Notes: a model not told the origin generated them from the sequence alone. A DNA stretch of 64,000 nt from Lingula anatina (GCA_051362555.1 CM120648.1:9854587-9918586), one strand, 5' to 3'; numbered from the stretch's first letter, positions 21,972-57,889 are shown. A program made the numbers and translations.

Positions 21972-24181
21972 TATATACTTTAGCTCAATAACAACTTTTT
22001 CTCAACTAAAAGCAGTAAAATAGAAACCTGGCTGTACTCATTTGATATGTAATGTTTTAAAATTCGGGCTGGTGCGTTTTATTGTTTTCCAATATAGGAA
22101 AGGGAATGATATCGTTGTGGTTATTTTTTTTCTTTTGTGCTAATATTTTGTGCATCACTTTTTAAAAGTCAATTCAACAATAAAGCTGTACGACCTCAAA
22201 GAGTCATGTTAGGCCCCATTCAGAATAGGGGACTAATTAGTCCGAGGGTCAAATATGGCGACCCACTACAAAGCTTGCCGTCTAACCCGCTGATAGACAC
22301 TGAATAGATATCCCGTGGGGAAGTATTTAAGTGGGTCGGTCATATATGACTACATTTAAAACAAATGACGACACGGAATTGTAGCTTATACACTTGTGGT
22401 CAACTCTGCCAATTTTCGTGATAAAATCTTGTTCAGGGATAAAGTTTCGCCCCATACCGATTGCTACCTCACGTCAAAATAAAAAGGTGTTAAATTGGCG
22501 ATGAAAGCTTTGAGTTGCCTATGCTTATACATTGCAACAAGAAATATAAACGCCTATATTTTATATTTTTGAAGCGTTTTTATTGTATTAAATCAGCACA
22601 AAGATAGATGCAATATTGAATAATAAGACGCTGGAATACCTCAAAGGGTTACAATATTCTTGAGCATAATGTATTATTTTGTATCAAAATTGACAGTAGC
22701 CTTCCTTGTGCATCATTATTTTTTTGCTTTTTGTCTGTAAATTCAAGAGCTTTGCTGCATCGTGTTATTCCAAATTTACTGTCCACGGCAGTTTGAATAG
22801 GAAGATTTAGGCCCGTTGGCCAAAAAAATCTGCAGGCAAGTTTAAAGGCGACTCGGCGGTTCAAATCGCAGCATGGCTTGCACTCGTTGACGTGGTGGCA
22901 GTTGTAAACCTGAAAGAATAAACAATCGGAATATTTTAGAGACTGCATAAAACGTTGAAACTCAGTGTCAGGAGTCTGTGGAAATTCCGCTTCCTAGGGC
23001 CAGTTTCACAACGGTAAAGATTGTCTTTATTCTGATGCAAATTTTTAAAATCAGTTGTGATTCGAGATTAATATGACGAGGTCTAAGAAAGTGGTAGTGT
23101 TTGTCTTTTTACCATGACGAATGAAATTCACAAGTCTCTCTATATAAAAGTGTCTTTAACACAAGAAACTACAGGACTCAAAAACCCGTTTCACTGAAAA
23201 AGTCTCTTGCATATATTTATCACCTTTGTAACGATTGGGAAATGTTACGATAGCTAGGAAAATGATTAGATTTTTGCTGTACATGTATAATGGTCTAACG
23301 CTGATTGTGTGCCTCCAAGTTCTTTCGTTAAACTGCGCTCTTGTTAACCTACCTGCTGTCTCTTGCTACAGTCTGGAACAATCTTTCCTTCCTTGACAGA
23401 AGTCTGGCACATGACGATGAATTGGCAATGGCGGGTCTGGACGGCACACACTGGCTTCATGCATATGTTGCATGGATCACCTTCGACAATAGCCACAGTT
23501 GGGGCTTCTCTCTTCCTGCGGCTGCCGTCTGCAATCAAAATTGAGAAAGAATTAAATTAGATTTGCATGTTTGAGTTTTGTTGCAGGCATCACTTTCAGT
23601 GATGGTCACCCCACTACGTATATTCTGAATAAAAATGCATATGATTCTAGTAAATGCGGAGATTATCTACCGAAAAAAGGCAACCCTGTCTAATTGTGTT
23701 TTCATTTCCTCTGTGCAGTGTCATCGGTATCAAAACTCCTTTTTGGATATCAAAATAACTATAAACTGTTTAGTTTTTACAAAAATAAACCAGTTATTTC
23801 ACTTATTTCACTTATTTCACCAGTGATATGTCCTACCTTTTTCGTCAGCCCTTAAGCTCTCCATCATCTTCTTAGCTCTGAAGGTGGCGAAGTTCCTGCA
23901 CTTGGGGATGAGATCCTCTGGCAGGAGGCTCTCTGGCTTCTGTGGGGTTCCCTCAATGTTGTAGTCGCTGGTCTGAATGCTGGTAACTGGCATATCTCCC
24001 TAAAAAGGAAAGAAACGGAAAATTCAAACACCTGATTTCTAAACGCTTAGATTTCTGGGTTGTTTTCACCACGGGAATATTTTTCTTTATGAGCATTTTA
24101 TTTTTTTTCAAAACTACGTAGTGACACAACGGAGAGATGCAAGTGATATAATTTGCAGCATGTTTAAGTAGATATGACACG

Positions 24182-24260
24182 CCAAGCAAACATAGAACGT
24201 TATTAGAGGGTTACCATAACGTTGGGATAACGCTCTGATAACGTTCTGTGTTTGCTGGGC
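24182..24260. mobile_element. Very short palindromic element CCAGCAAACA...TGTTTGCTGGG (related copies at ~32483-32578 and ~52424-52513)
   Basis: Inverted ends with internal AACGTT repeats; three related copies in introns of the BRICHOS array. Confidence 0.55.
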
Positions 24261-24803
24261 AGATGTTCATGTTACATATGTATCCTCCGATTGTACAAAA
24301 GCAATGCTGGTTTGGGGTACAGTGGGTCATTTTGAAATCTGAGAACCCCCTTCTCTTATCCAAGTACAGTTTAACAATCGAAATAGACAAAAACAAGCTA
24401 CTGTGCAATCCCATTGCTTTATAAAAATGTTATCTTCGTCTACCACTTCACATTTGCCGAATCTTATTTGTTAACCTTTGCCCTCCCTTCATAAGCAAAA
24501 TCCTGGAACTGTAATTCTTAATTTTCTGAAAGAAGGACTTTCATAAGTCTTTGCGCTTGTTCTCTAAAGTGACAAGGTTTGCTTTTCTTAGGGCATCAAC
24601 ACGAGATAAACCAGGAATTATGATATTTAAAAACTTCAGGAATTTTTACATATAAACTGTTAATACGAACTTAATGAAAATCAAAAGATTTCACCCTAGA
24701 AGTATTACAAATGTGCAAAAAAGTGTAACATAAAATCACAGATTGTGGCCTCTAACGTGAAACGACGACGTGACCACAAACGTGCATACCAATATACTTG
24801 TAA

Positions 24804-24834
<31 letters not shown>

Positions 24835-25757
24835 ACCTACGTCCTTCTCAGCCTCCCTTAGGGCGGTGATGGTGGTGTCTGGATCCTGGACCTCGGTCTT
24901 GTCAAGAGAAACCACAAAGCAAGCCTTCTGCTTGGGGAAGATCATCACAGTCAGGTTCTGAAAAGAGTTAAAATAGGCAAGTTTGTAAGCAAAAGAATTT
25001 CATCACTTTGTTATCCCTTGAATTGACAATGATATGTTCTTCGAATTTACCTAGGCATGGTTCTTGTTAGATTATGACAATTGGAGTCATAATTTAAGAG
25101 TCACTATTTGAAGTTTGAAGTATTGCCGTAAAACACATTTGCAGTTTAACAATAAATAAAAAATATTATTCTCTTAGAGTATATTTTAGAAACAATACAA
25201 GTAAAAATGTGAGTACTTATTCATTTATAACTTACACAGTCATCATTGTTATTACTTTGGGTTCAGTGAACTCTAAATAAATAAATTCAACTTACGTTCT
25301 TGAAATCATGGATGAATTCGGACTCGTTCACATGGTTCTGTTGAGGGACGTAGTAACTGACCAGTTTCCTGCCCTGGTCAACCTTGACCTTTTTCTGGAC
25401 CAAGACGCCTTCCTCATGAGCGTGAACAATGAAATGCTGACGGAAAAAGTATTTATTTCATTGTACATGTTCTTGAAGCATTTGCAGAAATAGGAAAGGC
25501 ATTGAGGGTAGAGCTTAAGTGTGCTTGCTTAAGAACAACGAGACCGATTTTCTTTGACATTGCTTATAGAACTACCTGTATGACTGGCGCCATATAACAG
25601 CTAAATCTCCCGTGATATTTTGTTTACATTCATGCCATATCTGTATGTATCTGTAATAAGGTAATTCACGCAGTTGGATTTCCATTTGCAAGCGCGTAAC
25701 TACGAGCTTAGTATAGCTGACACCCGAAAGAGGGCAGGAACGTCTCGATGGTGATTA

Positions 25758-26510
25758 AGGCTCAGTCACAATGTCGGCCATCTGTCGGGGATTAGTTTTG
25801 GCCGGGGGTCGTCGTAGAAAATAAAGAATCCTTGAACAATCCTAGCAATAATCCTAATAAAAGTGGAGCAGTCACATTGTCTGAGATTTTTTCAAGGATT
25901 TTGACCCGGTTTTGTCGACAAATCGTGGGATTAGCCTCATGCAATCGGAGGCGATCGGAGACGATATCTGCGAGCGTCTTTTCTTGTAATTCCCCCCCCC
26001 CCTCCCTTTTCTCAAACTTTTAGCGATCCGGTCTGAGGCGCCCTTTGATACACGGCGATTTACTACGATTCCACCGTATGATTGGTCGGAGACGATCTCA
26101 TAAAGCGTACGAATCGTCGCACGGCGCCTCCGATTCAGTCGGAGGGCGCCGGAGACTACTCCAGATATTGAATCTCAACCTGATTTTTCAATCCCACACA
26201 GAATCTTACGACTAGTCTCAGATTATTTGGAGGACGCCTCCGATTAATCGGAGGGCATCGTAGGTCATCGGAGATTGTGTCTGGGATGCCCAAAATGGGT
26301 GAAAAATCTTACGAGCAATCTTAAAATTTTAAGTTCAAAGTTGGGGACCGCGACGGGTGTGGCGATTTCTAAAAAATCTGCGACAACCCGCAGGCGTCCG
26401 GAGAGCGCCTCTGACGGGTGCAAAATCGTGAGATCTGTCTCAGGATTTTGTTAACATTTCCCGGGTTTTACCCATCCCCGACGCATCGCAACTGATTTGT
26501 GACTGAGCCT
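25758..26510. mobile_element. PIF/Harbinger (Tourist-like) MITE, 753 bp
   Basis: TIR AGGCTCAGTCACA ... TGTGACTGAGCCT; TTA duplication at 25755-25757 and 26511-26513; empty site GATGGTGATTACTCAC in copy C (~39794-39809) and equivalent in copy E. Confidence 0.9.
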
Positions 26511-27049
26511 TTACTCACTTGCTTTCCAACGACTTGTTTCACTTTCATGGGTTTACTCTGCTTGTGCGGTGGTGTCACCGCGAACGCTGCGAAGACGCAA
26601 AGAGCAAGGACGATCAGAGACTTCATCTGAAAATAAGGGAGAGATTGTCTGTATAATACACTCTTGCTACAAATGATGGAATATTTAAAAAGATATGGAT
26701 ATATTCATTATTTCAAAGTTCACTGTGATAATTGTCACAAAACCTTTTATCTAGCACGTGTGACAGGAATGGAAATCCTAGAAATGGAAGTCCCTTATGT
26801 TCCATATGATTAGAATAAATTAGTATAAGTCGGAGTATTGGGATCAGAACATGCGAATGTCACCTGTACAAAGTAATGGGGGCGGCCTACGGTTTCTAGT
26901 TAACAACCAATCCTGTCACACCGGATGTAGTATGTACCAATAAACAATTTTCAAGTTACATCAGTCAAAAACAAATTCTTTAAATATGCAAGTCAGTTGC
27001 TTAGAGTTCTCCTCTCTGTATAACAGGTTTGAATTATCACTTGGACTCT

Positions 27050-30073: not shown

Positions 30074-33000
30074 TTACAGTCCACGGCAGTTTGGATAGGA
30101 AGATTTTGGCAGTGTGGCAAGGGCTTCGCTGCATTTGACGTGTCCGCCGGGAAATTTCATTGCTGGCAATGGAGGGTAGTACAGCTGGTGGTTCATGTCA
30201 CAGCATGGCTTGCATTGGTTGACGTTGACAAACTTGTGAACCTGGGGTGATAAACGATCGGAATAATTTTTAGAGAATGCATAAAATGTTGAAACAAATT
30301 TTGCAATTTTTCAGTGCCAAGAGTCTGTGGAAATTCTGTCCGCTACAGCACTTGAATTTCACATCTCTATGGCCCGTTTGTTTATTTAAATGCAATTTCT
30401 AAAATCTGTTTAAGTCCTGGATAAATGTACTGAAGTCCACCAATTTATTAGCGCCATCCGGTTTCTTTCCTTACGAATGAAATTCTTCACGCAGCATTTA
30501 TCTCAAAAAGTGACTAAAACCACAAGAGACCAACATGTAAAATCATGTTTCCCTAAAGTTTTTAGATATGAAAATCATGATTCTAGGACAATTCTCCCCC
30601 CACCCCGGACAATTACCCCCAAGACAACCCCCGGACGATTCCCAAGAAATATATATTAAAATACAAATATAAAGTTAATTAATATTAAATTCAAAACATT
30701 TCATCCAATTTATTAATATTTTTAGTGTGATAATACAGCTTCATCATTAAACAAATTACTTTATAAAAAATTCCTTTTTCGTTGAGTACAAGTGCAGAAA
30801 GTATTATTTAAAATCTAGTAAAAGTATAACTACCTTTCCTACAGGTATAGGTGGGGATATTTTATGAATATTTTCAGTGTGATTGGTAGTAGGTAGGTAA
30901 GTTGTAGTAAAGCAGTTAGGTGACAGATAATCAAAGGGATACCTAGATAAGCAGGAGTCTGTTTACCCCACCTCTCCCAGGAGATGCACCTTGATTCAAT
31001 GCTTAGGGGGTGGGGGGTAATGAAGCAATTAAACGTAACAATTAATTCATCGAAGGGTTACCTGAGAGGGAGATTATCTGTTTACTCCACTTTACCTGGA
31101 TATACAGCATTGGTCAAAAAAGTTGTCCCACCCCCATTTCCATGTACTTTTATTTACAAATGATCACCTCACAGCTGTAAATTGTTAGAAATAGTGCTTT
31201 TTATTACAGATACCGTGTCTAACATGATTAATGGTTTAAAAAATACAAAATAGTCGTGAAAATATACATATTTTATACCATTTAGTCAAATTTATAAGAG
31301 GTACCCCCTCACATCCACTGTTTCACTGTGACTTCTGTAGATGTAAAGAAATGTCTATAAAATTGAAAAGACGCCATCAAATGTCCCCAAATTCACAGAC
31401 AATTAGCATTAGGGTGTGCTCGTTAAAGATCGCGTGCCTAACAGCGTGTGCGTCTACCGCGTATGATTAGTTTTTGTTGGTGATCCGAATCAATAATCAA
31501 TCAATAATCAATAATAAAAAATATCGAAAATTTAGGAGTGAAACGGCATTGGATGGAGACTTTGCTGCCTTGGCGGAGGTCTGCACTCTCTGAGTGCTTT
31601 TCTAGTTTGTTTAATGGAATATTATATATTCTTCGGGGGGGGGGGGGGGGGGGGGGGTCGTCCGGGGGGAGAATTGTCCGTGAGGGATTGTTGGGGGGGG
31701 GTGTTGTCCTGATACCGAAAATCATCCCTTAATGATTAAGAGCCAAATGTTGCAATTTCCAGGATAAAGTTTAGATTTCTGCTATATAAGAGCCTGAAAG
31801 GCTGCTCGTGTGCCCTTAAATTCTTAACAAAAATAAAAAAGGTCCTCTTAACCTACCTCCATTTTCTTGCTACAGTCTGGCACGATCTCGTCAAATTTGT
31901 TGGTGGCAGTCTGGCACATGACTATGAACTGGCAGTGGCGGTTCCGGACAACACACTCTGGCTTCATGCACATGTTGCAAGAATCTTCCTGAATAATGGT
32001 CATGGCGGGGATTTCTCTCTTCTTACGGTTACCCTCTGCAAACAGAATTGACACAGTATTTAGTAAGAGACAAATGCATGTATAGGGGTGACCGGGGCTA
32101 GTTGCACCCCGGGGTAAGTTGGTCCCCCATCAATTTATGACAAAGTTACTATGGGGTAAATTTATTGATCACATCATTTTGTAAAGTGACCGTATCCAAT
32201 AGTGCTAAGAAAGCGTCGGCAGTGAGTCTAAATGAAATAATTTAGCATCTTAAAGTAAGTTTATTAAAGAGACTTGATGGGGGGCCAATTTACCCCCGGG
32301 GTCCAACTAGACCCGGTCTCCCCTATGCTTTGTTGCAGGGATCACATTTATCGTTGCTCAACCTACAACTGTCAGTTACAAAAAATGGCACTTGTAATAT
32401 ACAAACTGAAATGTAACAGATTTTGGTTAAAGAAAAGCTAGGAGGCGAATATTCACATGGCTCGACTGGTTCCATACGTTATCCCAGCAAACACATAACG
32501 TTATTATAACATTACCATAGTGTTAAATGGGTAAATTAACGTTATGATAACGTAATAATAGCGTTTTGTGTTTGTTGGAATTGTCTCAGTGCAGTGTCAA
32601 CTGTGTGATCACCCTTTTAGATATCAAAATATATAGTTTGGTTCTTACACATTTACACGTATGATAACTGATTCCACCGGTACTGTCATACCTCTTTCGT
32701 CAACGCTGAAGCTCTCCATCATCTTTTTAGCTCTGAATGTGGCGAAGTTCCTGCACTTGGGGATGAGATCCTCTGGCAGGAGGCTGTCTGGCTTCTGTGG
32801 GGTTCCCTCAATGCTGTAGTCGCTGGCCTGAATGCTGGCAACTGGCATGTCTCCCTGAAAAGAATATGGGAGGATAATCCAAACTTCTGATTTCTTAAAA
32901 CTTCTTAACACTATTTTAAAATAACCTTTGAAATGATTTTCAATGAGCATTTTGTTGCTTTTCTTTCAAAAATACAGTTTAAATGGCGAAATAGACAATT

Positions 33001-34113
33001 TTTCAATCCCTTTGCCTTCTTTTTGGAATAAAAATCTGTCCTTGGCCACGATTACTTATTTGTAGAGACAAATGTGCTTATATTTATGCCGTTCCTCCTC
33101 CAGGCCATTCTGTAACAGTCATTTCAATACCAGCAAACTGACGATAAATAGGCAAACAAACAAACAAACAGATAAAATAAATAAATAAATAAAAATTAAA
33201 CCTACGTCTTTCTCGGCCTCTTTGAGGGCGGTGACGGTGGTGTCTGGGTCCTGAACCTCGGTCTTGTCAAGAGGAGCCACATAGCAAGCCTTCTGCTCGG
33301 GGAAGATCATCACGGTCAGTTTCTGCAAGAAGCAAAAATTAAGTTTGTCAGCAAAAGAATTTCATCAGCTGTGTTATATTCTCACGGTAATAACAACCGT
33401 ATCTCCCCGAGAAAGTGTCTTATTAGGCTCTGACATATTGCACTGTTAATTGGAGTTTCGTTGTTGTTGGAAGAAACTACAATCGTTACTATACATTTGT
33501 CAATATAAAATGAATAAAAAAGTGTATTCTTTGTTGTGACATGAATATAATGAAGATAATGGAAACTCTACATAAATAAATAAATAAATAAATAAAAAGA
33601 AAATTTAAACTTACGTTCTTGAAGTCGTGGATAAATTCGGACTCGTCCACCTGATTGTGTTGAGGGACGTAGTAACTGACCAGTTTCCTGCCCTGATCTA
33701 CGTTGACCTTCTCTTGAACCAAGACGCCCTTTTCATGGGCGTGAACATTGAAATGCTGTCCAGAAAAATATACATGTGACTATACATTTGTAGCTGTTCC
33801 TTAAGCATTTGTAGAATAGAAAAGCTATAATTTAAGTTGACCTGCATTACAGAAACACTGAATTTTATTTGGTAGTGTTAATAAAACACTGGAGCACAGA
33901 GAACGTAGTGTCTCCTTTTTACAGTTTCACAATTTCCTTTCACAAGCGCGTTACCAAAGGCTAAGTACATCTGACAGCAGATACGCCTCAATGTCGATTA
34001 CTTACCTGCCTTCCAGGGATTTGATTCACTTTCATAGGTTTGCCCGGGGCCTTCGGTGGTGGAACGGCAACCGCCGCGACGAAAAAAAGAGCAAGAACAA
34101 CCACAGTCTTCAT
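30074..34113 (-). CDS. BRICHOS-furin-Cys-rich secreted precursor, copy B (291 aa)
   Basis: Exons 34113-34006, 33755-33615, 33322-33206, 32854-32692, 32035-31857, 30241-30074; all GT-AG, 876 nt, no internal stop. Signal MKTVVVLALFFVAAVA; BRICHOS hallmarks (IHDFKN, KACYV, PKCRNFATF); EGNRKKR; C-terminal domain with 11 Cys ending YPNCRGL*. Non-coding exon donor at 34677. Confidence 0.88.
30579..31716. mobile_element. Mutator-like (MULE) non-autonomous insertion, 1138 bp
   Basis: 9-bp direct repeat GAAAATCAT at 30570-30578 and 31717-31725; subterminal inverted GGACAATTCTCCCCC / GGGGGAGAATTGTCC; the homologous intron of copy E (~51910-51935) is empty. Confidence 0.75.
32085..32323. mobile_element. 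TA-flanked MITE (Tc1/pogo-type), 239 bp
   Basis: TA-GGGGTGACCGGGGCTAGTTG ... CAACTAGACCCGGTCTCCCC-TA; absent from the homologous intron of copy E (~52275-52290). Confidence 0.75.
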
Positions 34114-34676
34114 CTGGAATAAAATTAATCGAAATTTACCCAGTATATTTTCCTAAAATAGAAAATGGATAAAATTGATCTATTATATTTACTATCTTCC
34201 AAATATTCCATCATTATGGTATTTTGCTAAGGGATTGTAAACGATACCGTTATGTCTTTGAATGACTTTAAGATTCTTTTCTATATTACTTTAACACGTC
34301 ATTCGTTTTCAGCCATAAATTGTCATTAATTTTCCAAATATAATTACGAATGCTTTGGGTTTACAGCTAATTTTATTATTTTGAAGCAACTGATCTTTAA
34401 ATCTAATTTAATTTTGACATGCGCAAAGCTGCCAAAAACAAAAACACATTTTATAAGATTAAGTTCTTACAATAATTCTCTCTCCAAATTTAACAAATTC
34501 CTCTTGTGATGGCGTATATTGCAATGGCCACATAGTTAACATGTTTAAAAATAGAAAATTGCATAGTCTTTTTTATTAAGCACATTTATGACGTTCAAAA
34601 ATACACACAAGTATACCGGACTCTTCACTACTACCTATTTTCAAATGTATACACCCATGACAAAAATGATACCTAC

Positions 34677-35150
34677 CTCGGCACTCTGATTTAAGTCTTT
34701 TTAGTTTTACGCTTGGGTAGCAGTTGCTGAAGAAAGATCAATGGATGCCGTAGATTGAACGCCGAAAGTTTAAATATATACCTTGTACCAGGAAGACTTT
34801 TTAACCAACCAGATTCAAGTCCGGAACTACTCACCAAGGTTATCATAGGTGACATAACAAATGTTCTTGATATTGCGGTCTTATCGTCTCTTTTCTGAGA
34901 ATAGCTTCTATATCTGAATGACCAAATGTTTAAGCAAACGAAACGCACCTGGTGGGTAATAAAGTAAAGATAACGTCCCTTTATTTCTGTTGCAATACCT
35001 GTATACCAGGAAGCTTTAAGTTCAGCACCATGTTGATTTTCTAAAATTATACATGCGGTTAGTCGTCAATCACTTACGGGACACATGTACTAGTACCTCA
35101 CTGTATCTGGGTCGTTCGTACTCTTTGATCACAGGGGAAGCTGTAGTTTA
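34677..35150 (-). promoter_or_regulatory. Non-coding exon 1 and conserved promoter of BRICHOS copy B
   Basis: Donor GAG|GTAGGT at 34677; TATTTAAA on - at 34776-34769; upstream block alignable to those of copies C, D and E. Confidence 0.7.
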
Positions 35151-39887: not shown

Positions 39888-39941
<54 letters not shown>

Positions 39942-40337: not shown

Positions 40338-40820
40338 GTCTGTACTCTGTTTTAAGTCTTCTTAGTTTTACGCTTGGGTAGCAGTCGATAAGTTAAGATC
40401 AATAGATGCCGTGGATCGAACGCCGAAGGTTTAAATATATGTATGCTTTATATCAGGAAGACTCAACCAATCAGATTCAAGTCTAGGATAACTCACCAAG
40501 GTCTTATTTTGGGACATGTTAAATGCTATTGGCATTGCGGTCTTATCATATCTTTTTTTTTCTGAAAATAGCTTCTATATCTGAATGACATGAGTGTTTT
40601 TATCAAACGAAACGTCCAGGAAAGGTGGAAGTTACTGGACGAAATGACCCCCTGGTTGAAAGTAAAGATAATGCCTCTTTATATTTGTTGCAGTACCTGT
40701 ATACCAGGAAGCGTAAAGTTCATCACCATGTTGATTTTCTAAAATTATATAAAACGGTTTGTCTTCAGTGACTTAGGGGACACATGCACTAGTACCTCCC
40801 TGTATCTGTGTCGTTCGTAA
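40338..40820 (-). promoter_or_regulatory. Non-coding exon 1 and conserved promoter of BRICHOS copy C
   Basis: Donor GAC|GTAGGG at 40338; TATTTAAA at 40437-40430; CCAATCAGA, CCAAGGTC and CTTATC motifs at positions shared with the other copies. Confidence 0.7.
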
Positions 40821-43265: not shown

Positions 43266-43676
43266 TTTACGGATGAAATGTTTTTGTCTTCTGTTATCAT
43301 AATGATTCATATAAGGAGCAATGAAATTTCTACCAGTTGGAAAAACGTTTATTTTGTTTTGGCAAATATCCAAATCAGCACAGGTCACACTTGTACGACA
43401 AAAATTCATTTTAATTGTATTTACCTTTGAGTTCGGCTCACTCATCAAAAATTAGAAAGACGCTATCTGCAATACTAAATTAACGTTTTGTTACGTTAAA
43501 AGAACGCCAACGACATTATGATTATAGTGCAGTAGAATAGGTTGCTAAAGATGTATCGTCACATTCACTGGTTAATTTTGAAGTAATGCCAGTGCTCTTT
43601 TCTAAACAATTCTTCATTATATCGTATGTGGTAATTAGAGAAAATTTTGAGGCTTATTTCCCCAAGTTTACTGTCC

Positions 43677-46600
43677 TCAGCAGTTTGGATAGGCAGATTT
43701 TGGCAGTGTGGCAATGGCTTCGCTGCATTTGATGTGTCCACCGGGAAATCCTGGCATTGGTGGGTAGTACAGCTGGTGGTTCATATCGCAACATGTCGTG
43801 CATTTAAGGACGTCGGAGAATTTATGTATCTGGAGCAATAAACAATTGGAACGTTATCAAGAGAATGTATACAAATGTTTACTGCTGGTTTACCATATAA
43901 ATGTGACTGGGGGGATTGAATGGGATTGACTGGAGGGGATTTCGATCCGCAAAGTTTTTGGATTGGACTCCAAAATAAATGGGTTCAGGTCAAAGCAAGT
44001 ATTAGCGCCCTCGGTTAATAAGTTTCTATTTTTCTCTTACGAATAACAACCACCCGTCATTATCTCACAAATGTGCCCAAAAATCTCGGAACTTAGAACC
44101 CAAATCGTGCTGCTGTACAGTTTTAGATATGAAAAAATTAATGATGACGAGAAAATGTTGCAAAATACAGGAAAATAAACAATTGCGTATTTTTGTTTTG
44201 TAAATATGACATTTTTTATGGTGGCTGATTCGGGACGTCGTAATATCGATTCGTTTAATGGGACGCGATTTTGCGATACCACGATAGCAGGATGCGATAT
44301 CAGGATAGCAGGATGCGATACCACGATAGCACGATGCGATATCACGATAGCACGATGCGAAATCACGACAGCACGATGCGATACCACGATAGCACGATGC
44401 GATACCACGCTTTCACGATGCGATATCACGATGGGATACTACGATAGCACGATGTCCCGAATCAGCCACCATTCATTTTAGCCTACCTCTTGTTTCTTTG
44501 AACAGTCTGGAATTTGACCTCCATATTTGCTGTCAACCATATCGCACATAACAATGAATTGACAGCTGCGACCCGAGACGACACACTGTACCTTTCTGCA
44601 CGGTTCGCAGGAATCGCCCTCGATGATGCTCATGGCGGTGGGTTTACTAGATCTCTTCTTACGGTTTTTGTCTACAAATTGAATGGACAAAACTAAATTA
44701 CAGACATAAACATGTGTATATATACTATACTTTGTTTGCAGGAAACACTGCCACCAATGCTCACCCCAGATGTCAATGAAGGCACCTATAAGTCACCTAA
44801 CAAAGGTTCTTCTATTATAAGCAGAAATTAACTAAGTTCAGATATTGTGAATTCACAATTTAGTTTTAATCAGACAGAAAAAAGACAAGAGATGCATTCT
44901 TTGTCACCCGAATTCAAATGGAAAGATCAGTAGAAGCCCAGAGAGATCTATAAACGTGTTTCATAGATTATTCAAAGGTATTTGAGTAAAACACGAAGAA
45001 TTTTTCAAAATATCAGCACAGTTGAACCAAGATGGCAAAGGCCTAAGGGATTCTTTAACTCCAGGAACATGAAGCAGCAATCAGATAGACGGTGAAAGCA
45101 GTGAATTCAAACCAATCTGTACACGAGTGATATAGAAATGAGCGTTGTCACCCGATCTCTTTAACATCTACACTGAAATGATTCTCCGCATCATTTATGA
45201 TCATGATCTATGATCATAATTGGCAGAATATCAACAACAGATCGGCTAAAATAAGGTCCTATATAAGTCCGATGTGGGATAATGCAGCGGGGTTTGCTGA
45301 TAGTAGGCCACAAAATGGGCAACGTTTTTAGAGATTAAAAGTTTCGAAAATTAAAATCCAGCCAATCTTCATAAGCACTAAATTTATTCCAAATAGGGTA
45401 AAATATTACAGGTGTATATAGGCTCAAATATGTAGATTCAACAACAGACCGCTATGTACACAAAGTACCCATGAAATAGACTAGCCAATATGAAACCAAT
45501 CAGGGACCCAGATTAGACCACAGATTGCAACCTCTTCCCAGATCTGCCCAGCAAGCCCACTAGTGAATTGTACATGTACAGGCATCAATTAACATATTTG
45601 CGGCGAAATGTGTCCAGTAATAATAAATATATTTATGTGTGTGTTTGTGGGTGTGGTTGGAATATTTCCAATAAATGCAGATGTAACCTTATCACTGTAA
45701 CGAAAAAAATGTGCTACACGTGCATATTGCTTTAAGAGAAGATATGCTGTGCTGAACATTATTTTGCTACTCTCTGAATACCTTTTCTCTAGAAAAATGT
45801 AACAAGTTTCTTAGTTTTGCAAAGTTCATACACGACAATTCTGAAGAGCGCATTTCATATTAAATGTCAAGTCTGTAAAATGCCAAAAGTGTTTTCCATA
45901 CGTAATTGTCTTTGTGTTGTGTCAACCGTGTAAAACTCTTTTTTAGATATCAAAATAAACACGAAAACCAGGCATAGCCTACCTAACTAATTTCACCGGT
46001 TCTGTCATACCTTTTTCGTCAACGCTGAAGCTCTCCATCATCTTCTTAGCTCTGAAGGTGGCAAAGTTCCTGCACTTGGGGATAAGATCCTCTGGCAGGA
46101 GGCTCTCTGGCTTCTGCGGGGTTCCCTCAATGCTGTAATCGCTGGCCTGAATGCCTGCAACTGGCATATCTCCCTTAAAAGGAAAGTTTTTGGTAATTCA
46201 CGTATAATTTTGATTTCTTAGTACTTGGTGTAATTTTGACCACACATAGCGCCTCTATAAAAACGTATGTATTGAATGTAAAGCTAGCAGAATGCGATTA
46301 TCTGTCACTTTTGTACTGTAGATATAATGCAAGGCTGACACTTGCACGACTTTTATCCCCGATTTTGTCGTGGCAAGGCGTGCCATTTTGGGGCACGAAG
46401 TGGGAGGCTCCCGCACTGTTCCCGACTAGTTCACGCATAGTTCACGACGAGTTCACGGCGAGCTAACGAATAGTTTACAAATACGTGCCCACATTGACAC
46501 GAACTGCCACGTCAAGTACGCGCATAGTTTGCGCATGGTTTACGCACTTCCCGCATTGGCACGACGGGTTTGAGCAATTTGGACGGTGCCGTGCCGACTT

Positions 46601-48012
46601 CGGTACGCAATATACGTGAACTGATCGTGAACTATGCGTGGCAGTTCGTATCAGTCGTGGCATGCCTCGTACTGCCACGTACTGGCACACATCCTCCCGC
46701 ATCGTCCCGTCGTGTTCACGACGAGTCACGAACAGTTTGCGCATAGTTCACGACTCTGTCGCGAAATTATGTCGTGGCCAAACATTTCAAAATTCTCGTC
46801 CCGACATGGCACGTAGTCACGACGGGTTTACGCACACTTCTGTCTCTAAAGCAATTGTATGTTTACGAGCCAAATATGTTTATTTTTTTTGGCTTCACTC
46901 GATTCGCAAAATACCGGATCCACCATCGGAAGATTGGCTTGGGGAAGACTATTACTCACTTCTTCCTTCCCCATGTGGTCACCCCTGAAAAACGCTCGTC
47001 TACAACGAAAAAATACAAACTTAAAGACTTTAAACCTACGTCTTTCTCTGCCTCTTTAAAGGCGCTGACGGTTGTGTCTGGGTCTTGGACATCGGTCATG
47101 TCAAGAGGGGTGACGTAGCAAGCCTTCTGCTTGTAGAAGATCATCACAGTCAGTTTCTGCAAGATGTCAAAAAAGGCAAGTCTGTGAGCTGTTTTATGAT
47201 CCCACATTTACAATGTGTCTGAAATCTCCCCGGAAAAAAGTTTTTTGTTAGATTCTGATTCTGATTCTGGGTGTGGTAACTGCTGAATTGCTATTGTATG
47301 GAGAAAGCATGGTCGAAGCATTTGTTATTATACAACGGATACTACTCTTAGATAAAGTGAATTGCATTGTGAATTGAAGCAGTTGCTGACCGAAAACCAA
47401 CTAAAAAACTATAACTACAAAAACAATGCGGTTCTTTACTTATTTATTCAGCCTTAAGTCATAACGTAGTGTTGTTCTTAAAGTCGATGTTTGATGACTC
47501 CAAATAAATATACAAAAAGTTAATGCTTACGTTCTTGAAGTCATGGATGAATTCGGACTCGTCTACCTGGTTGTGTTGAGGGACGTAGTAACTGACCAGT
47601 TTCCTGTTCTGGTCAACATTAACCTTCTCCTGGACCAAGACGCCTTTCTCATGAGCGTGAACATTGAAATGCTGTCAAGAAAAAAAGTACATTGCAGCTG
47701 TTCCTTAACCATTTTAACAATAGAAAAGCTATTATTTAAGTTGGCCTGCCTTAGGGAAACATTGAATTGTATTTGCTGCTGTTAATAAAACACTGGAGCA
47801 CAGAAAACGTCTTTTTGTCACAGTTTCACCATTTTCTTTCACAAGCGAATAACAAATAGCCTAGTATATCTGACGATAGGAACGCCTAAATATCGACTAC
47901 TTACCTGTCTTCCGGGTACTTGGTTCACTTTCATGGGTTTACCCTGGGCGTTCGGTGGTGGAACGGCAACCGCAGCGACGACAAAAAGTGCAAGAACAAC
48001 CACAGTCTTCAT
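43677..48012 (-). CDS. BRICHOS-furin-Cys-rich secreted precursor, copy D (288 aa; most divergent mature domain among intact copies)
   Basis: Exons 48012-47905, 47671-47531, 47156-47040, 46173-46011, 44671-44487, 43829-43677; in frame. DKNRKKR-SSKPTAMSIIEGDSCEPCRKVQCVVSGRSCQFIVMCDMVDSKYGGQIPDCSKKQE-IHKFSDVLKCTTCCDMNHQLYYPPMPGFPGGHIKCSEAIATLPKSAYPNC*. Confidence 0.88.
44218..44472. mobile_element. TIR element with internal 21-bp tandem repeats
   Basis: ATGGTGGCTGATTCGGGAC ... GTCCCGAATCAGCCACCAT enclosing about 8 copies of GCACGATGCGATA(C/T)CACGATA; explains the repetitive ORFs 44037-44429 and 44206-44481. Confidence 0.8.
44880..45240 (+). mobile_element. Non-LTR retrotransposon reverse-transcriptase fragment (RTE-like)
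   Basis: DYSKVF (~44967) and LSPDLFNIYTEMILR (45145-45189) resemble non-LTR RT motifs; frame is broken. Confidence 0.55.
46330..46835. mobile_element. GC-rich repeat insertion, probably a truncated MITE, in an intron of copy D
   Basis: CpG-rich block with repeated CACGAC/GTCGTG motifs; absent from homologous introns of the other copies. Confidence 0.5.
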
Positions 48013-48820
48013 CTGAAATAAAAAGTAATCGAAAATATGATTAACCCATTATATCTTGCTAAAAATAGAAAATGGATAGAATTTTATTATATTTATTATC
48101 TTCCAAATATTCTATCATTATGATGAAATTTTTAAAATATCTGTCAAGATAATATTTGATGTTTTTTTCAGTAATTCGATCCATATACATTTAGTTGGCT
48201 AGAGTTGTGTACTTTGAGCAGCTCATCTGAGCACAATGACAGGCCATGTGTACAGACGCAGCGCATGCGCTGTAGCAAAACAAATTGCAAATTGCAACAA
48301 ACTGCAAAAACTAGTTGAATCAGTGCCTCGAAAAAATGATGAAAAAATGATTGTAAACGACCCAGCAGTGCCTTCGGATGACTGTCATTCTACGTTGTTC
48401 CTTTAACATGACATTTGTTTTCACCCATAAGTTGTCATTCATTTGCCAAATATAAATTCGAATACAATGAGTGTACAGCTATTGATTTTTTTTATCATTT
48501 TGAAGCAATATATCTTACGATTTAATTTGGACACGAGCAAAACTGCCAAATATAAAAAGACATTTAATTAATTTTATAACTTCTTACAATAATTATCAAG
48601 AAAGAATTACTCGCCAAATAAAAAATATGCTTTGGCGATGAGGATGTCGGAATAGCCACATTGTTAATTATTGTATAAAAACGGAAAACTCTATAGTTGA
48701 GCTCTCTTTTTTATTAAGCACATTTATGACGTTCAAATATACCCACAAGTATACCGGACTCTTACAATTAACTATTACCTATTTTCAAATGTATACACCA
48801 ATGACAAAAATGATCCCTAC

Positions 48821-49320
48821 CTCTGCACTCTGTTTTAAGTCTTCTTAGTTTTACGCTTGCGTAGCAGTCAATAATTAAATATCAATAGATGTCGTGGAAC
48901 GAACACCAGGGGTTTACATTTATACCTTGTATCGGGAAGTCTTTCAACCAATCAGATTCAAGTCCGGAAAAACTCACCAAGATCATGATAGGTGACATGA
49001 TAAATGCTGTTGGCATTGCAGCCTTATCGTCTCTCTCTTCTAAGAAAAGCGTCTATATCTGAATGACATGAATGTTTAAGCAAACAAAATGCACCTGGTG
49101 GGTAATAGTTACCGGACAAACTGGCCCCTGGTTGAAAGTAAAGATATTGCCCCTTTATGTTTGTTGCAGTACCTGTATACCAGGAAGCTTAAAGTTCAAG
49201 ACCATGTTGATTTTCTAAAATTATAGAAACGGTTAGTCTGAAATGACTTACGGGACACATGCACTAGTGTCCCCTGTATCTGGGTCGTTCGTACTCTCCG
49301 ATCACAGGAGAAGCTGTTGT
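48821..49320 (-). promoter_or_regulatory. Non-coding exon 1 and conserved promoter of BRICHOS copy D
   Basis: Donor GAG|GTAGGG at 48821; TATAAAT on - near 48924-48918; CCAATCAGA, CCAAGATCA and CTTATC motifs aligned with copies B and C. Confidence 0.7.
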
Positions 49321-50607
49321 CTTGTTAGATATAAAATTTGAAAAAGTGTTAGATGATAATTATTAAATTGGAAAGCGATAGATCTGTATTTTTAACTTAA
49401 TTATGCAAAGGAAATGATTTTTCTGGATATTTCAAGTTGTTTGCCTTCACACCCCGCAAATACATGTGTAAGAAAATAAAAAAATAAAATAAAATAATAA
49501 AAATGAAAATAAAAAATATATTCAAAAGCGACATTAGTACATTGTATCAGAGATATTCGTACTCTCTGACCACAGGAGTCGCTGTTTCAGCCAGTTACAA
49601 GAAAATGCTAGAATATATATTGCAAAGTAATAGTGATCTACAGACTTAAAATTTTACAGGGTTCTAAATTTTAAGCACTCCTGTAATCTATGTATATAGG
49701 GCCTACTCACTTGGGAAATAAGTGTCACCAGTAATGCAATGCGTAAAATGATATAGAAAATCACGTTTTTTATTTAATGTTTTTTATTTAATTTTTAAAA
49801 GCATTTTCCATAAAAATTTTACTGATAACATGAATAAGCTTACGATAAAAAATTTAGGATCGTACGTCCCCTGCGAATGCTGGGTGCAGTAGAGGCCGTG
49901 GAGGTCATAAAGGTAGAGGCAAGGCATTGGTCGCAATCAGTCGTATGGTCTGTTTGTGCCCAAATATATGAAAATTGAGCTGTTCAAGTTGTACAATCGA
50001 CAATCACTGCCAAAACTCGAGCGTTCGCCTTGAGTACGCCTTTTATACTCCTGGCATGGGGGCTAGACCCCCCCACCCGGTGTGTTCGATTACGTGCGTA
50101 AGTTATGCGGGCATTCCCCGTTCTCAACATACAAAGGGTACTTGCTACTTCATTGCTTGGTACGAGCGTCTTATAATAATTATTTATTGAGCACGAAGAA
50201 ATGGTTCACATTTACAGGCTTTCTAACTAATACTAATATAAAATAATAATTTAAGTAGTTAACTATGCTCATCCACGCAGGGATACACGCTTTTTAATTG
50301 CACGGTTTACAAATTTACATATGGCGCTCACACTCTGAGCAGAGAGTGGATTGAGTAAAATAGGCGCATGTAGTTTACTGTCTGTAGGACCCTGCAAGTT
50401 CATATCTGGTATGCAGGCGAACAGTATTTCCTGTTATGTAACGTTTTTTTCACGGAACCTTTAAAAATAGCACGCCTCACTTGTGAACTCCTTTCAAACT
50501 CCTTGCGTGAGGAGCAAGGTAACTGTACACCTGCGGCCTCGTTGTTCGCCGGGCATGCCCAACATCCTCTGTACACGCTTACGGGCTGTCTGCGAACTCA
50601 AAGAAAC

Positions 50608-50825
50608 CATTCCCACAGATATTTAGATCGATCTATCCCCCTGGGGAGTCTCACTAGATTGCTGTCAGCTAAACTGGCTTAAATGTCTGTCCCGGCTTCT
50701 AAAAGCTGTAAGGGGTAATTAACTTTGTGTGCGCTCGGCTCCCGGAAGCTGGCAGCAATTTAGCGTGAAACCCCAGGGAGTTAGGTTGATCCCGATGGAT
50801 CGATCTAAATCTGTGAAAACCCAGT
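50608..50825. mobile_element. ~210-bp MITE family, copy 2
   Basis: Near-identical to 10914-11124; the paralogous spacer at ~35480-35510 lacks it. Confidence 0.75.
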
Positions 50826-51441
50826 CAAAATGTCGCAAGAAGGACTTTCGTGGCACGTGCGATTCTGCACTGCCGGTTGAGACCGAGACTTAATTCACAT
50901 ATGTGAAATAGAAAATTTGTCGTGTGGTAGCTTTTGAAATGTGCAGAAGGTATCCCAAAAATTGAAATCAAACAAATATTTTTGTCAAAGCTGTTCAAAT
51001 CTTGCCCAAAAGGAAACCTTGTTCTCTTTTATTAACAGTGCAAATGAAAATGGCCTTCAGTGCAGGAACAGTATATAGACGATTATATGACGAGCTACTA
51101 GACTGGTATTTCTTTTGTTTTGTTTCCCGTTGGGTCACGTCAGTTTTTGGCTGAAATTATAAGTTTAAATGATCTTTACATAGTAAAATAAAATAAAAGT
51201 CTGCAAAACTAAACGTTTTATTGTTTGAAAAGAACAGGTCAAAATCAGGAATAATGACATTGTTGTACAATATAGTAGATCGCTAACGATGTATAATCAC
51301 ATTCATTAGCTTATTTTAATGTCCAGATAACTCATAGGGTTTCTTTCCTAAATAATTAAGTTTCATCGAAGACAATATTTGAAGAAAAGTACGTCTCAGT
51401 CTTTAATTATTATTATTAATTTTTTTTTTTTGTTTCCAAAT

Positions 51442-53871
51442 TTACTGTCCACGGCAGTTTGGATAAGAAGATTTGGCCTTGTTTGCCATCATTTTGCTGC
51501 AGACGATGTTTCCGCCGGGATATCCGATTTCTGGCATTGGCGGGAAATACACCTGGTGGTTCATGTCGCAGCATGGCTTACACTGGTTGACGTTGTAGAA
51601 CTTGTGAACCTGGTAAAATAAACAGTGGGAATAGTTTCTATAGAATGCATAAAATGTTATCTTGGAACTTATCAGTGCCATGAGACTGTGGATATCCTGT
51701 ACTCTAAAGCGATTAAAAATCACACCTCTAGGGGCTCCGTTTGTCTTTATTTTGAAAATAATTTCTGGACAGCGCCCTCCATTTAAAACAGTTTCCATTT
51801 TTTCGTAACGAATGGAATTCACCATGCAGTATCTATCCCAAAGAGTGACTCAAACAACTAGATACTTGGAACTTCAAAATCGTGTCTCTTTGAGAAGTTT
51901 TTTTTAAAGATATGATTATCATGCTTTAATGATTAAGGGTTAAATGTCGCAATTTCCAGGGGAAAAAATATACCTTTCCTACTATGCAAATGCCCTAAAG
52001 ATTGAACAGGTGCCTCTAAATTCTTTACAAAAAGAAAAAAAACGTCCTCTCAACCTACCTCCTGTTTCTTGCTACAGTCTGGCACGATCTCGCCAAATTT
52101 GTTGGTGGCAGTCTGGCACATAACGATGAACTGGCAATGGCGGGTCTGGACAACACACTCTGGCTTCATGCACATGTTGCAGGAATCATCCTCAATTATG
52201 GTCATAGCGGGGGTTTCTCTCTTCTTGCGGCTGCCGTCTACAAGCAGAATTGACAGAAAATTAAGTCACAGACAAGCGTGTAAGTATGCTTTTTTTTGCT
52301 GGAATCACATTCCTCAGTGTTCAACCTACAGCTGTCAATTACTAAAATGGCACTTATATATTAACTGAAATGTAACAGGTAATGGTTTTAGAAAAGGAAG
52401 GGGGAATATTTACACGAAATTGGCCCAGCAAACATAGAGCGTTATCATAACGTTACCACAGCGTTTAATGGTTGAATTAACGTTGTGGTAACGCTTTTTT
52501 GTTTGTTTGTTGGGATTGTCCCAGTGCAGTGTCAACTGTGTTATCACCTTTTTAGATATCAAAAATAGTTTGGTTCTTACTAAACTACATTACTGATTTC
52601 ACCGGTGATATGTGTTACCTTTTTCGTCAACGCTGAAGCTCTCCATCATCTTCTTAGCTCTGAAGGTGGCGAAGTTCCTGCACTTGGGAATGAGATCCTC
52701 TGGCAGGAGGCTGTCTGGCTTCTGTGGGGTTCCCTCAATGCTGTAGTCACTGGTCTGAATGCCGGCAACTGGCATGTCTCCCTAAAGAGGACATGGGCGA
52801 TAGATTCACACATCTGATTTCTTAAAACTTCTCGATACGGCTGAGTAATTTTAAATTTATCTTTGAAGTTATTTTCAATGAGCATTTGTTTTTGTTTTGA
52901 AAACTACCTGGTGATGACATAGAGTAGAAATGTGATAATCTGAAACGTTTAAAAGATTTGAAAAGATTTTGATTTTGATTTGATTTAGATTGGTTGGCAC
53001 AGAAGTGCACTGTTTACGTGTAATGTATAACTAATTTTTTTCGCTGTACACATATACCTGTAGATGTAATGGGTAAATTTAATGGCGGAACGAGTCCAGG
53101 AAAGAGGGTAACACTCTCACCAACTTACTTTCTTACTACTTCTTCCCGACTTCTTTCCAAAATTACAGATTAAAAGGCGAAAATAGACAGTTTTTTAATC
53201 CCTGTGCAAATGTTTTATAAAAAAATGTGTCCTTGTCCACGAATTTTTTATCTGTATTTTTATCTGAATTTGTTTATCTCTATGCCATTCCTCCTCTACG
53301 CCATTCTAAAACAGTAAAATACCAGCAAAATGTCGAAAAATAAAAAAAAAATTAATAAAAATAGATAGATACATAGATAGATAAAAAAGAAACCTACGTC
53401 CTTCTCGGCCTCCTTGAGGGCGGCAACGGTGGTGTCTGGGTCCTGGACCTCGGTCTTGTCAAGAGGAGCCACATAGCAAGCCTTCTGCTTGGGGAAGATC
53501 ATCACCATCAATTTCTAAAAGAAAAAAATAATAAATAAAAAATTAGAAATAAATAAAAATGCAAGTTTGTGAACAAAAGAAATTCATCAGCTGTGAAAGT
53601 TTTTTTGGTAGATACTGAAAAATTGGAGAGGTAATTAGAGATTCGGTGTTGTTTGGAGAATGCATTATCTTAACTTTAAAATACATTCGTCATTATACCA
53701 TGACTGACCGGTATTAACCTTAAATTATTGATACATTGCTGACCAAAGACTAGGAAAAAAACGCCATAGCTACAACAACAATAATACCAATGTTACTATT
53801 TATTCGTTTGCCCAACCATAAGTTATCACTTAGAACTACATGTATTATTTTGGATTGGCGAGAACTCTTAA

Positions 53872-53914
<43 letters not shown>

Positions 53915-54532
53915 AAAAGAAAGTTTAAACTTACGTTCTTGAAGTCATGGATGAATTCGGACTCGTCGACCTGGTTGTGTTGAGGAACGTAGTAACTGAC
54001 CAGTTTCCTGCCCTGGTCAACGTTGACCTTCTCCTGGACCAAGATTCCCTTCTCATGAGCGTGAACATTGAAATGCTAGAGAGAAAAAAAAATATCTGAT
54101 TATGCACTTGCATGTGTTCCTTTATCATTTAAAGAAACAGAAAAGTCATTGAAAGTAGAGCCTTAGTTTGCCTGCGTTAATAGGTGATCGATTGCTTTGG
54201 CAAAGGCAATAAATCACTGGATAATTTTCATGTGTAGTATTCATGTCTGCCATGAGATGTCAGCTTAATCTCAAGTGATATTTTGTTTACATTAATGCCA
54301 TATCTAAACTTATCTGTAAAGGGGTCATTCACGCAGTTAAATTTCCTTTGTAGGCGCGTAACCAATGGCTTAGTAAAGCGGACTCCCGAAAAAGGGCAGT
54401 AACGTCTCGATGGTTATTACTCACGTGCTTTCCAGGGACTTGTTTCACCTTCATGGGTTTACCCTGAGCGTGCGGTGGTGGTACCGCGAACGCCGCGACG
54501 ACACAAAGAGCAAGGACGATCAGAGTCTTCAT
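51442..54532 (-). CDS. BRICHOS-furin-Cys-rich secreted precursor, copy E (291 aa)
   Basis: Exons 54532-54425, 54075-53935, 53514-53398, 52781-52619, 52237-52059, 51609-51442; 876 nt, intact. MKTLIVLALCVVAAFA...DGSRKKR-ETPAMTIIEDDSCNMCMKPECVVQTRHCQFIVMCQTATNKFGEIVPDCSKKQEVHKFYNVNQCKPCCDMNHQVYFPPMPEIGYPGGNIVCSKMMANKAKSSYPNCRGQ*. Confidence 0.9.
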
Positions 54533-55065
54533 CTGGAAATGAGGGAAAGATTGTCTGTATAATACTTAATGGACGATAACAATATCTTTATCTTTATCTA
54601 ATATCTAGTCTTAATCAATTAAAGGGATAATAACTCTTTGTTTTGGCCAAAAAATGAATTTTCCTGGAGTAAACAACAATTTTCCCATACTTACCAATGG
54701 TTAATAAATCCATTTTTACATTCAAAGTTAGTCCCTGTTTTTTTTTTTTTTTCTAAAAACTTTGTTTTTTTGTTATGATCTCTTAAGAGATTATAACAGA
54801 ATATAGCCATCAATGGAGGTCACGTGGTCTAAAGACAAGCTCAGATATCAGAATAATAGCTATAACTGCCGTTTTTGTGGGAAAACAGGATATATCACAT
54901 TTCTGTGAGTTGTTCACAATGTTTTTATTGTGAAATATAGATAGAGTTATTATTCCTTTAAACGGTCCATCCCATAATTGATAAACAGGTTGGTTATTTC
55001 AGACACAAGTCCACCCTCTCATGGAGGGCATCCCCAATAACTCCATGTAATCAAGCTCTAACAGA

Positions 55066-55230
55066 CATGGGCGTCTGCAGGGGGGGGGGGGGGGGGGGGG
55101 TCAATGGGGTCACTTGACACCCCCTGGAATTTTGGCAGGCACGTTGATAGCGGGTATCCAGCCAATCATTATCTCCCCCTTCAATTACATTGACCCCCCC
55201 CCCCCGGAAAATTTTCTGCGGACGCCAGTG
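55066..55230. mobile_element. Short TIR element
   Basis: CATGGGCGTCTGCAG ... CTGCGGACGCCAGTG inverted ends around G/C runs. Confidence 0.45.
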
Positions 55231-55582
55231 CTTAAAGATTACTAGCTTGAAACAAAGGACATTAAATTTTGAACTGGTAGGTGTGAAATATTATCTTGAG
55301 CTACTTATACACATTGGCTTCCTGTGTGCAAATTTTATCAAACAATGGCTTCCTCTTATTGAACTAATACTGCTTCATGTATGAAAGTTTTAAAAGTACT
55401 AATTACAGTTTTGTTTCTTTACTGTGGTTGCTGGCAGATTGATGTTTTTTTTTTTCAATATAACATGAATGATTTGGTAAATTTGAAAGAGGACAATTGC
55501 ACCTCAATAATGCATTAAAATGAATTTTGAAAAATCTCTGTTTAGTAAATTTCAAGAAAGAATTACTCAGATAATTTTCACA

Positions 55583-55616
<34 letters not shown>

Positions 55617-55809
55617 GATAAACATTTACAGGGAACTCGATGTGAGAAGTTCCTAAGAAATATGAAAAATATCTGTATAGTCAAACTACAGAGTATCTTG
55701 TTCTTAAGCACATTACTGACACTCAAATATAGACACAGAACCGGTAAATTATCTAAATTCTTCTATTTGTTCATAAGCTCTAAACAGCCAAGATCAAAAA
55801 CTTTCCTAC

Positions 55810-56120
55810 CTCGGCACTTCGTAAAGTCTCCTTAATTTCACGCTTCTGCAGCAGTCGAAGAATAAAAGTTCAAAGTTGCCGTGGATCGAACGCCGTAGGT
55901 TTAAATACCTTTTATCAGGGAAGAACTTTTCAACCAATCAGGTTCGAGTCCGGAATTCGTCACCAAGGTCATATTGGTGACTTGATAAATGTGGTTGGCA
56001 AGACGGCCTGTCATCTTTATTTCTGAAAAGCTTCTATATCTGTAAACATGAGTGTTTTAATCAAACGAAACGTTTGGGATGGGTGATAGTTACCCGGCAA
56101 ACCGACCCCCGGGTTGGGAG
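55810..56120 (-). promoter_or_regulatory. Non-coding exon 1 and conserved promoter of BRICHOS copy E
   Basis: Donor GAG|GTAGGA at 55810; TATTTAAA at 55907-55900; CCAATCAG and CCAAGGTCA motifs; aligns to the B/C/D promoters up to ~56115. Confidence 0.7.

Positions 56121-57858: not shown

Positions 57859-57889
<31 letters not shown>

Follow-up and report, generated by a model that had tools for sequence, protein, structure and literature searches.

Within a 64-kb stretch of the Lingula anatina genome (64,000 nucleotides (nt), GCA_051362555.1 CM120648.1:9854587-9918586; hereafter the window), we describe a tandem array of five paralogous genes that encode BRICHOS-domain precursors with a furin-type site and a C-terminal tail. 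Four of the genes are intact and one is a broken copy. Sequence comparison places the tail in an uncharacterised, probably secreted family that joins BRICHOS to a long predicted hairpin; given its homologues in coral and amphioxus, the Lingula array reads as a local expansion of an old family and not as a Lingula novelty. Within the predicted hairpin, a likely spare cysteine and a conserved histidine suggest covalent or metal-bridged self-assembly.

A tandem array of five BRICHOS genes

The initial annotation of this DNA described five minus-strand paralogues with six coding exons each, and our gene models, built from six-frame motif scans, self-BLAST and exon mapping, bear this out: every copy has six coding exons and 25/25 introns are GT-AG. 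We named the copies A to E from high to low coordinates; the copy number refers to the window, in which tblastn found no sixth copy. The ATG-to-ATG distance between neighbours is 5.8-8.1 kb, running from the ATG of A at 54532 to that of E at 26626. The exon sizes given as typical, 108/141/117/163/179/168 nt, are exact in A and D, with deviations in B (108/141/117/163/185/153), C (153/141/114/163/179/168) and E (108/141/117/163/176/261).

51442-55863, minus strand: gene A, intact and expressed, 291 amino acids (aa); coding exons 54425-54532, 53935-54075, 53398-53514, 52619-52781, 52059-52237 and 51442-51609; non-coding leader exon ~55810-55860
43677-48012, minus strand: gene B, intact, with the most divergent tail, 288 aa; exons 47905-48012, 47531-47671, 47040-47156, 46011-46173, 44487-44671 and 43677-43829
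35878-39962, minus strand: gene C, open frame, 305 aa as assembled; exons 39810-39962, 39417-39557, 38882-38995, 38172-38334, 36494-36672 and 35878-36045
30074-34113, minus strand: gene D, intact, mosaic, 291 aa; exons 34006-34113, 33615-33755, 33206-33322, 32692-32854, 31857-32035 and 30074-30241
22649-26626, minus strand: gene E, degenerate; exons 26519-26626, 25296-25436, 24841-24957, 23837-23999, 23353-23528 and 22649-22909

The proposed local amplification is supported by these five tandem paralogues, but the description of a five-gene array holds only in part: E is frameshifted and has no recognisable promoter. Up to the homologous stop, the last exon of E is 34 nt shorter than that of A, and the resulting frameshift gives a different, 138-aa end. 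The cysteine framework that all five copies were said to share is accordingly found in A-D and not in E. Gene C carries a 52-nt T run (39889-39940, minus strand) within its signal-peptide exon that adds 15 codons in frame; this may be a real expansion or a homopolymer or assembly artefact.

The A-D precursors are 288-305 aa long and consist of a hydrophobic N-terminus, a BRICHOS region, R-K-K-R, and a tail of 105-108 aa with 11 cysteines spaced 2,4,6,5,13,14,2,0,20-22,14. A hydrophobic N-terminal stretch is present in 5/5 copies, with a peak 11-residue Kyte-Doolittle mean of 3.2-3.35 and nothing above 1.5 downstream; from this hydropathy, precursors A-D are likely secreted through a cleaved signal peptide. 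The R-K/R-K-R motif also occurs in all five copies, so that at the sequence level the pre-pro-protein anatomy of the initial annotation stands. Two features go beyond it: the non-coding leader exon and the odd number of tail cysteines.

A search with an exon-5 profile returned two L. anatina proteins, P0001 and P0002. P0001 matches gene A at 289/291 residues; P0002, which shows 70-86% identity to A-E, clusters with E in the BRICHOS tree (support 100/99).

The N-terminal domain is a BRICHOS domain

The domain described earlier as BRICHOS-like belongs to the BRICHOS superfamily. The Pfam BRICHOS profile (PF04089) matches P0001 with an E-value of 1.1e-9 and 38.8 bits, above the cut-off of 25; exon 3 alone gives E 1-3e-4 in 3/3 copies tested, and a profile of the family matches the human Bri2 BRICHOS domain in the PDB (8rnu) with E 2.7e-11. 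The residues D80, C96 and C156 are kept in all five genes and are at least 90% conserved among 41 aligned relatives. Together with the N-terminal hydrophobic stretch, and with the convertase motif and predicted hairpin, the profile match and the Asp and Cys pair cover the sequence features of the superfamily described in PMC9714404 and PMC2751770.

53944-53946, minus strand: D80, the BRICHOS Asp (IHDFKN) of gene A
53476-53478 (C96) and 52680-52682 (C156), minus strand: the BRICHOS Cys pair of gene A
52218-52229, minus strand: R-K-K-R furin-type motif of gene A, with predicted cleavage after R183

The tail defines a family beyond Lingula

An exhaustive phmmer search returned 62 proteins at E<=0.001, most of which combine a signal peptide, BRICHOS, a basic site and a Cys-rich tail; word-seeded homologue searches were less sensitive and gave either the two Lingula proteins or those plus two amphioxus proteins. 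Among 20 relatives looked up, the named organisms are Lingula, Pocillopora and Branchiostoma, and the relatives include Pocillopora XP_027035563 and Branchiostoma XP_019638129 and XP_035699535. Membrane-anchored matches form a separate clade of 4 in the tree. Two Branchiostoma belcheri matches, P0085 (Bbelb_022780) and P0091 (Bbelb_022770), have consecutive locus tags, which suggests that the amphioxus relatives are in tandem too.

A non-circular tail hidden Markov model (HMM) was made from 22 non-Lingula tails, in each of which the phmmer match ended before the tail. It scores the A-D tails at 20.7-26.8 bits, values reached by 0-2 of 500 shuffles each when the cysteines were held fixed; with a first tail HMM of 32 tails, 0/300 shuffles reached the A-D scores. 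Given that shuffles with fixed cysteines so seldom reach these scores, the tail homology extends further than Cys spacing. Gene E is weaker, its score being reached by 14/500 shuffles. The extended form with 11 cysteines is also present in P0011, P0013, P0022 and P0026 (pairwise E 6e-9 to 1e-3).

Consistent with the tail not having been recognised earlier as a characterised family, there was no Pfam match for it in 41/41 family members scanned. A search of the ESM Atlas with the tail alone gave no usable match, which speaks neither for novelty nor for absence. Searches of the open literature listed no description of the family or of the spare Cys-His feature described below, subscription journals being mostly outside this coverage.

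Predicted structure of the precursor

The AlphaFold2 (AF2) model of P0001, computed from 41 sequences, has a mean predicted local distance difference test score (pLDDT) of 85.4 and a predicted TM-score (pTM) of 0.76. It contains a BRICHOS sheet at residues 35-166 and a hairpin of ~50 residues with strands at 200-221 and 227-250; block pLDDT is 84-94 across residues 201-260. From the pTM and published models of other members, the hairpin would dock on the BRICHOS sheet. The initial annotation had named the segment CVVQTRHCQFIVMC as the likely client. This segment is indeed the first strand of the predicted hairpin, but the client is more likely the whole hairpin (200-221 with 227-250) than this 14-mer.

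Foldseek with the full model found nothing at E<=0.001, with the Bri2 BRICHOS domain at a TM-score of 0.46. In fold, residues 31-166 of the P0001 model most resemble LolA/LolB and lipid-binding proteins related to ependymin (VIA Z <=5.7; Foldseek E 0.01-0.1). This resemblance of the BRICHOS sheet is weak and possibly reflects just a common curved sheet: the best VIA-align Z, 5.7, is in the range of common arrangements, and the matched rows cover the BRICHOS sheet and not the tail.

A likely spare cysteine and a conserved histidine

Before alignment, 15 matches were excluded: fragments, repeated-domain models, one unrelated repeat protein, the N-terminally truncated P0057, and P0017, which is discussed below. 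From the 53 aligned rows we used the 40 with at least seven tail cysteines for counting, setting aside gene E and 12 rows with fewer. The tail count is odd in 35/40 (31/36 when Lingula is taken as one; 18/22 in the tail-independent set). With two cysteines in 39/40, the BRICHOS core offers no partner for a spare cysteine in the tail.

52134-52136, minus strand: C211 of gene A, likely unpaired Cys on the first hairpin strand; this column is Cys in 31/35 tails
51604-51606, minus strand: H238 of gene A, conserved His in the second strand of the hairpin, placed roughly across from C211 by the strand register; present in 33/35 tails

From the strand register of the predicted hairpin, and from the joint loss of columns C204 and C246 in P0005, P0020 and P0045, we infer nested pairs C217-C231 and, with a bulge, C204-C246. 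With these four residues paired, C211 is left over as a likely unpaired cysteine, within one residue of facing H238. In 27 rows, the two spacings that set these residues against each other are narrow, 7.1+/-0.65 from Cys to C211 and 8.3+/-0.47 from His to Cys, while the hairpin loop between varies more (14+/-6).

Several observations weigh against this reading. The exact register, 448, sets C211 opposite V237, one residue off H238. The loss of C211 is weakly linked to an even cysteine count (29/2 vs 2/2, Fisher p 0.056). For the odd counts, a binomial p of 1e-5 overstates the case because the rows are related and not independent. There is also the Lingula protein P0017 (LOC106150908, outside the window), a 130-aa protein that has the tail (35% identity, E 5e-20) along with RTKR and a signal peptide, but no BRICHOS. 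If its gene model is right, the tail may be made without a chaperone. P0017 has 10 tail cysteines, an even number; it keeps the His and lacks the Cys equivalent to C211. Its tail-only model is poor (pLDDT 62.9, pTM 0.29) and matched nothing at Z>=2; as its sequence and alignment differ from those of P0001, it makes no clean control for BRICHOS dependence.

Evolution of the array

Identity among the copies is 77-92% in the pro-regions and 52-82% in the A-D tails. Synonymous divergence (dS) is 0.19-0.48 in the pro/BRICHOS exons and higher, 0.25-1.35, in exon 5. Gene D is a mosaic, with exons 1 and 6 nearest B and exon 5 nearest A. Unequal crossing-over together with conversion probably shapes the array, the BRICHOS exons being homogenised and the tail exons reshuffled; given the low pro/BRICHOS dS and the mosaic D, the pattern of constant chaperone and varied cargo looks like the outcome of conversion and exon reshuffling.

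The ratio of nonsynonymous to synonymous divergence (dN/dS; pairwise Nei-Gojobori) is 0.23-0.43 in the tail and below 0.45 everywhere. Positive selection on the tail is not supported by these pairwise values, nor do they support reading the panel of effectors suggested for this array as a diversifying one.

Expression and promoters

We mapped four same-species RNA runs (X1, X3, X4 and X7) to 42000-58500, a region that covers genes A and B only. Spliced transcripts, which the earlier proposal called for, are found for gene A in two of the four: X4, which is stranded and shows minus-strand RNA, and X7; both have hundreds of junction reads. X1 and X3 have about two reads for gene A. At least four of the six introns of A are seen as direct joints, of 449, 381 and 349 nt plus a 1277-nt leader intron, and the reads place the end of the non-coding leader exon near 55860. 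Coverage of gene B is low in X4, and in X7 its tail exons are nearly devoid of reads. The X7 reads carry many fixed differences and may come from another haplotype or a paralogue.

55900-55907, minus strand: TATA-like box upstream of the gene A leader exon
48814-48939 (B), 40331-40461 (C) and 34670-34796 (D), minus strand: promoter/leader blocks homologous to that of A

No homologue of this block was found upstream of gene E (score 62 vs 142-146 for B-D). The intron behind the leader exon of A contains a high-copy element (54619-54942) where reads from each of the four runs accumulate and show opposite-strand joints at the element's ends, a picture that fits a MITE-like repeat (miniature inverted-repeat transposable element).

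Other elements in the window

About 1 kb beyond gene E, at 20679-21656 on the minus strand, is a broken Tc1/mariner transposase remnant (HTH_Tnp_Tc3_2, E 7.5e-12). On the plus strand, 19207-20259 is a 350-aa stop-to-stop open reading frame (ORF) with a Pfam DUF268 match (E 5.6e-34) and a weak methyltransferase match. Long inverted repeats at 15825-16356 and 18869-19304, ~93% identical across ~220 nt, flank 2.5 kb and probably mark where a further DNA transposon ends on either side; neither of two ORFs between them had a Pfam match on the strand tested. A dispersed repeat of ~220 nt occurs in three copies with 73-83% identity, at 10904-11126, 50598-50827 (between A and B) and 60050-60262.

Comparison with known BRICHOS systems

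OAF shares the design of the Lingula precursors: a signal peptide, a BRICHOS-type domain with the Asp and disulfide, a convertase site, and a long beta-hairpin nested by disulfides (PMC9714404). The mature part of human OAF has 70 aa and four disulfides with all cysteines paired (same source), whereas the Lingula tail has 105-108 aa, an odd 11 cysteines, and is tandemly amplified. Neither OAF_N (PF14941) nor OAF_C (PF22873) matches any of the 41/41 members at E<=1; by Pfam profiles the Lingula family stands outside OAF, and the feature-level likeness of P0007 to OAF is weak. By analogy, OAF is nonetheless a precedent for a long BRICHOS client.

Like the predicted Lingula proteins, the polychaete peptides (arenicin, alvinellacin, nicomicin, capitellacin and polaricin) come from secreted BRICHOS pre-pro-peptides of a marine lophotrochozoan and have a C-terminal client rich in beta structure. 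In polaricin a single unpaired cysteine joins two chains by an intermolecular disulfide, an earlier example of a BRICHOS client that is linked between chains through Cys (PMC10608444). The clients of polaricin and nicomicin are 19-33 aa long (same source); that of Lingula, 3-5x longer, is near-neutral, with five predicted disulfides. It is not a short cationic client of the polychaete kind, having 105-108 aa, a net charge of 0 to +2 and an isoelectric point (pI) of 7.0-8.1. The initial annotation was thus right that this client is much larger than the short annelid peptides, with OAF as the long-client precedent.

ITM2/Bri2 has a homologous BRICHOS domain and a furin-type site ahead of its C-terminal client. 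In contrast to ITM2/Bri2, the Lingula proteins have no type II anchor or cytoplasmic N-terminus, their hydrophobic stretch starting from residue ~4, and the Bri2 client has 23 aa and one disulfide where that of Lingula has 105-108 aa and 11 cysteines. The ITM2/Bri2 label that UniRef gives to P0001 is an automatic misnomer, as neither the anchor nor the short client is present. Chondromodulin-1/tenomodulin and BRICD5 (group C) also have long Cys-rich C-termini of 29-149 aa behind BRICHOS, but with a membrane-type hydrophobic region (PMC2751770); the homologue searches returned no sequence from these groups. In the coral and amphioxus relatives, a signal peptide, BRICHOS and a basic site are likewise combined with a homologous tail core, which includes the likely spare Cys and the His; most of them have 7-9 cysteines and end soon after the hairpin, whereas proteins of the Lingula type carry two more cysteines in a C-terminal extension.

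A proposed model for the tails

We propose that the array encodes a secreted, cross-linking protective protein. Gene A is transcribed and spliced in a sample-restricted manner. Its precursor, judging from hydropathy, would be secreted via a cleaved signal peptide, and the BRICHOS domain, recognised by its profile, would chaperone the hairpin, as suggested by other BRICHOS proteins and by the confidence of the model. A furin-type protease would then cut at RKKR and free the ~108-residue tail, whose hairpin may be stapled by the C217-C231 and C204-C246 disulfides, with further pairs formed by the outer cysteines. C211, near H238, would probably connect two chains, through a disulfide or through a metal bridged by Cys and His, and yield dimers or oligomers. 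The most probable role of the product would be protection at a surface or in mucus, exerted through binding or self-assembly rather than through cationic membrane lysis, which is the weakest step. Taken as a whole we consider this chain of steps somewhat probable; the precursor anatomy alone is much firmer. A bolder version is tentative: an ancient secreted BRICHOS branch of corals, brachiopods and amphioxus, in which furin-freed Cys-His hairpins would lock into covalent or zinc-bridged dimers and polymers to make a protease-triggered extracellular material or defence net, with a mosaic array and a chaperone-free derivative without the spare Cys in Lingula.

The released tails may instead be antimicrobial or defence effectors that hit microbes directly, as a larger version of the polychaete BRICHOS peptides. 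The precursor design is that of arenicin, alvinellacin and nicomicin (PMC9714404), the search that found the family also brought up siblings whose tails are short and cationic (P0008, net +8 over 34 aa; P0015, net +6), and the expression of gene A is high and sample-restricted. In corals, short-tail BRICHOS proteins are predicted antimicrobials in settling larvae (PMC12960093). Coral BRICHOS transcripts, which may belong to other subfamilies, increase as much as 380-fold upon heat and acidification (PMC5299404). However, the A-D tails have net charges of +1, +1, 0 and +2 (K+R minus D+E) at ~12 kDa, and this near-neutrality argues against a classical cationic antimicrobial or lytic peptide. Net tail charge also varies from -8 to +15 across the family, and the dN/dS values, pairwise ratios and not site-level ones, give no sign of positive selection. 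We consider a direct antimicrobial role rather unlikely.

Less probable still is a structural role, in which freed hairpins would build cross-linked fibres of beta-sheet by polymerisation, whether in the shell or periostracum, in the cuticle of the pedicle, in chaetae or in adhesive mucus. The long predicted beta-hairpin, the conserved spare Cys, the high transcript depth in one run, and a chaperone family known for amyloid-prone clients (PMC9714404) are all consistent with such fibres. On the other side, the available supplement of the Lingula shell proteome (PMC13425148) matched neither BRICHOS terms nor four Lingula accessions nor six peptide motifs, and that of the 2015 genome paper (PMC4595640) had no BRICHOS terms, both weak blanks given that identifiers may differ. 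Relatives also occur in amphioxus, a shell-less animal.

The least probable role is that of growth-factor-like signalling ligands, possibly disulfide-linked dimers nearer OAF/chondromodulin than defence peptides: neutral charge, purifying selection, and a pro-domain, furin site and odd cysteine count fit dimeric ligands, the last three being the pattern of dimeric TGF-beta-type factors, and the language-model features of P0007 lie nearest OAF-containing clusters (0.92-0.94), but its Atlas recognition of 2196, under the 2300 mark, makes this a weak match, the OAF profiles do not match, and for dose-sensitive ligands it would be less usual to find copies turning over rapidly, mosaic genes and one copy in decay.

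Significance

Studies of natural BRICHOS clients have so far dealt mostly with short peptides. The family described here offers a far longer natural client and a Cys-His feature across cnidarians, brachiopods and chordates, with P0017, a BRICHOS-free relative without the spare Cys, as a natural control. BRICHOS has been studied as an anti-amyloid chaperone. Should the Lingula hairpins self-assemble, the domain would serve to deliver functional polymers and not only to guard against aggregation; if they do not, the array still belongs to a defined, unnamed invertebrate family that has been mislabelled as ITM2.

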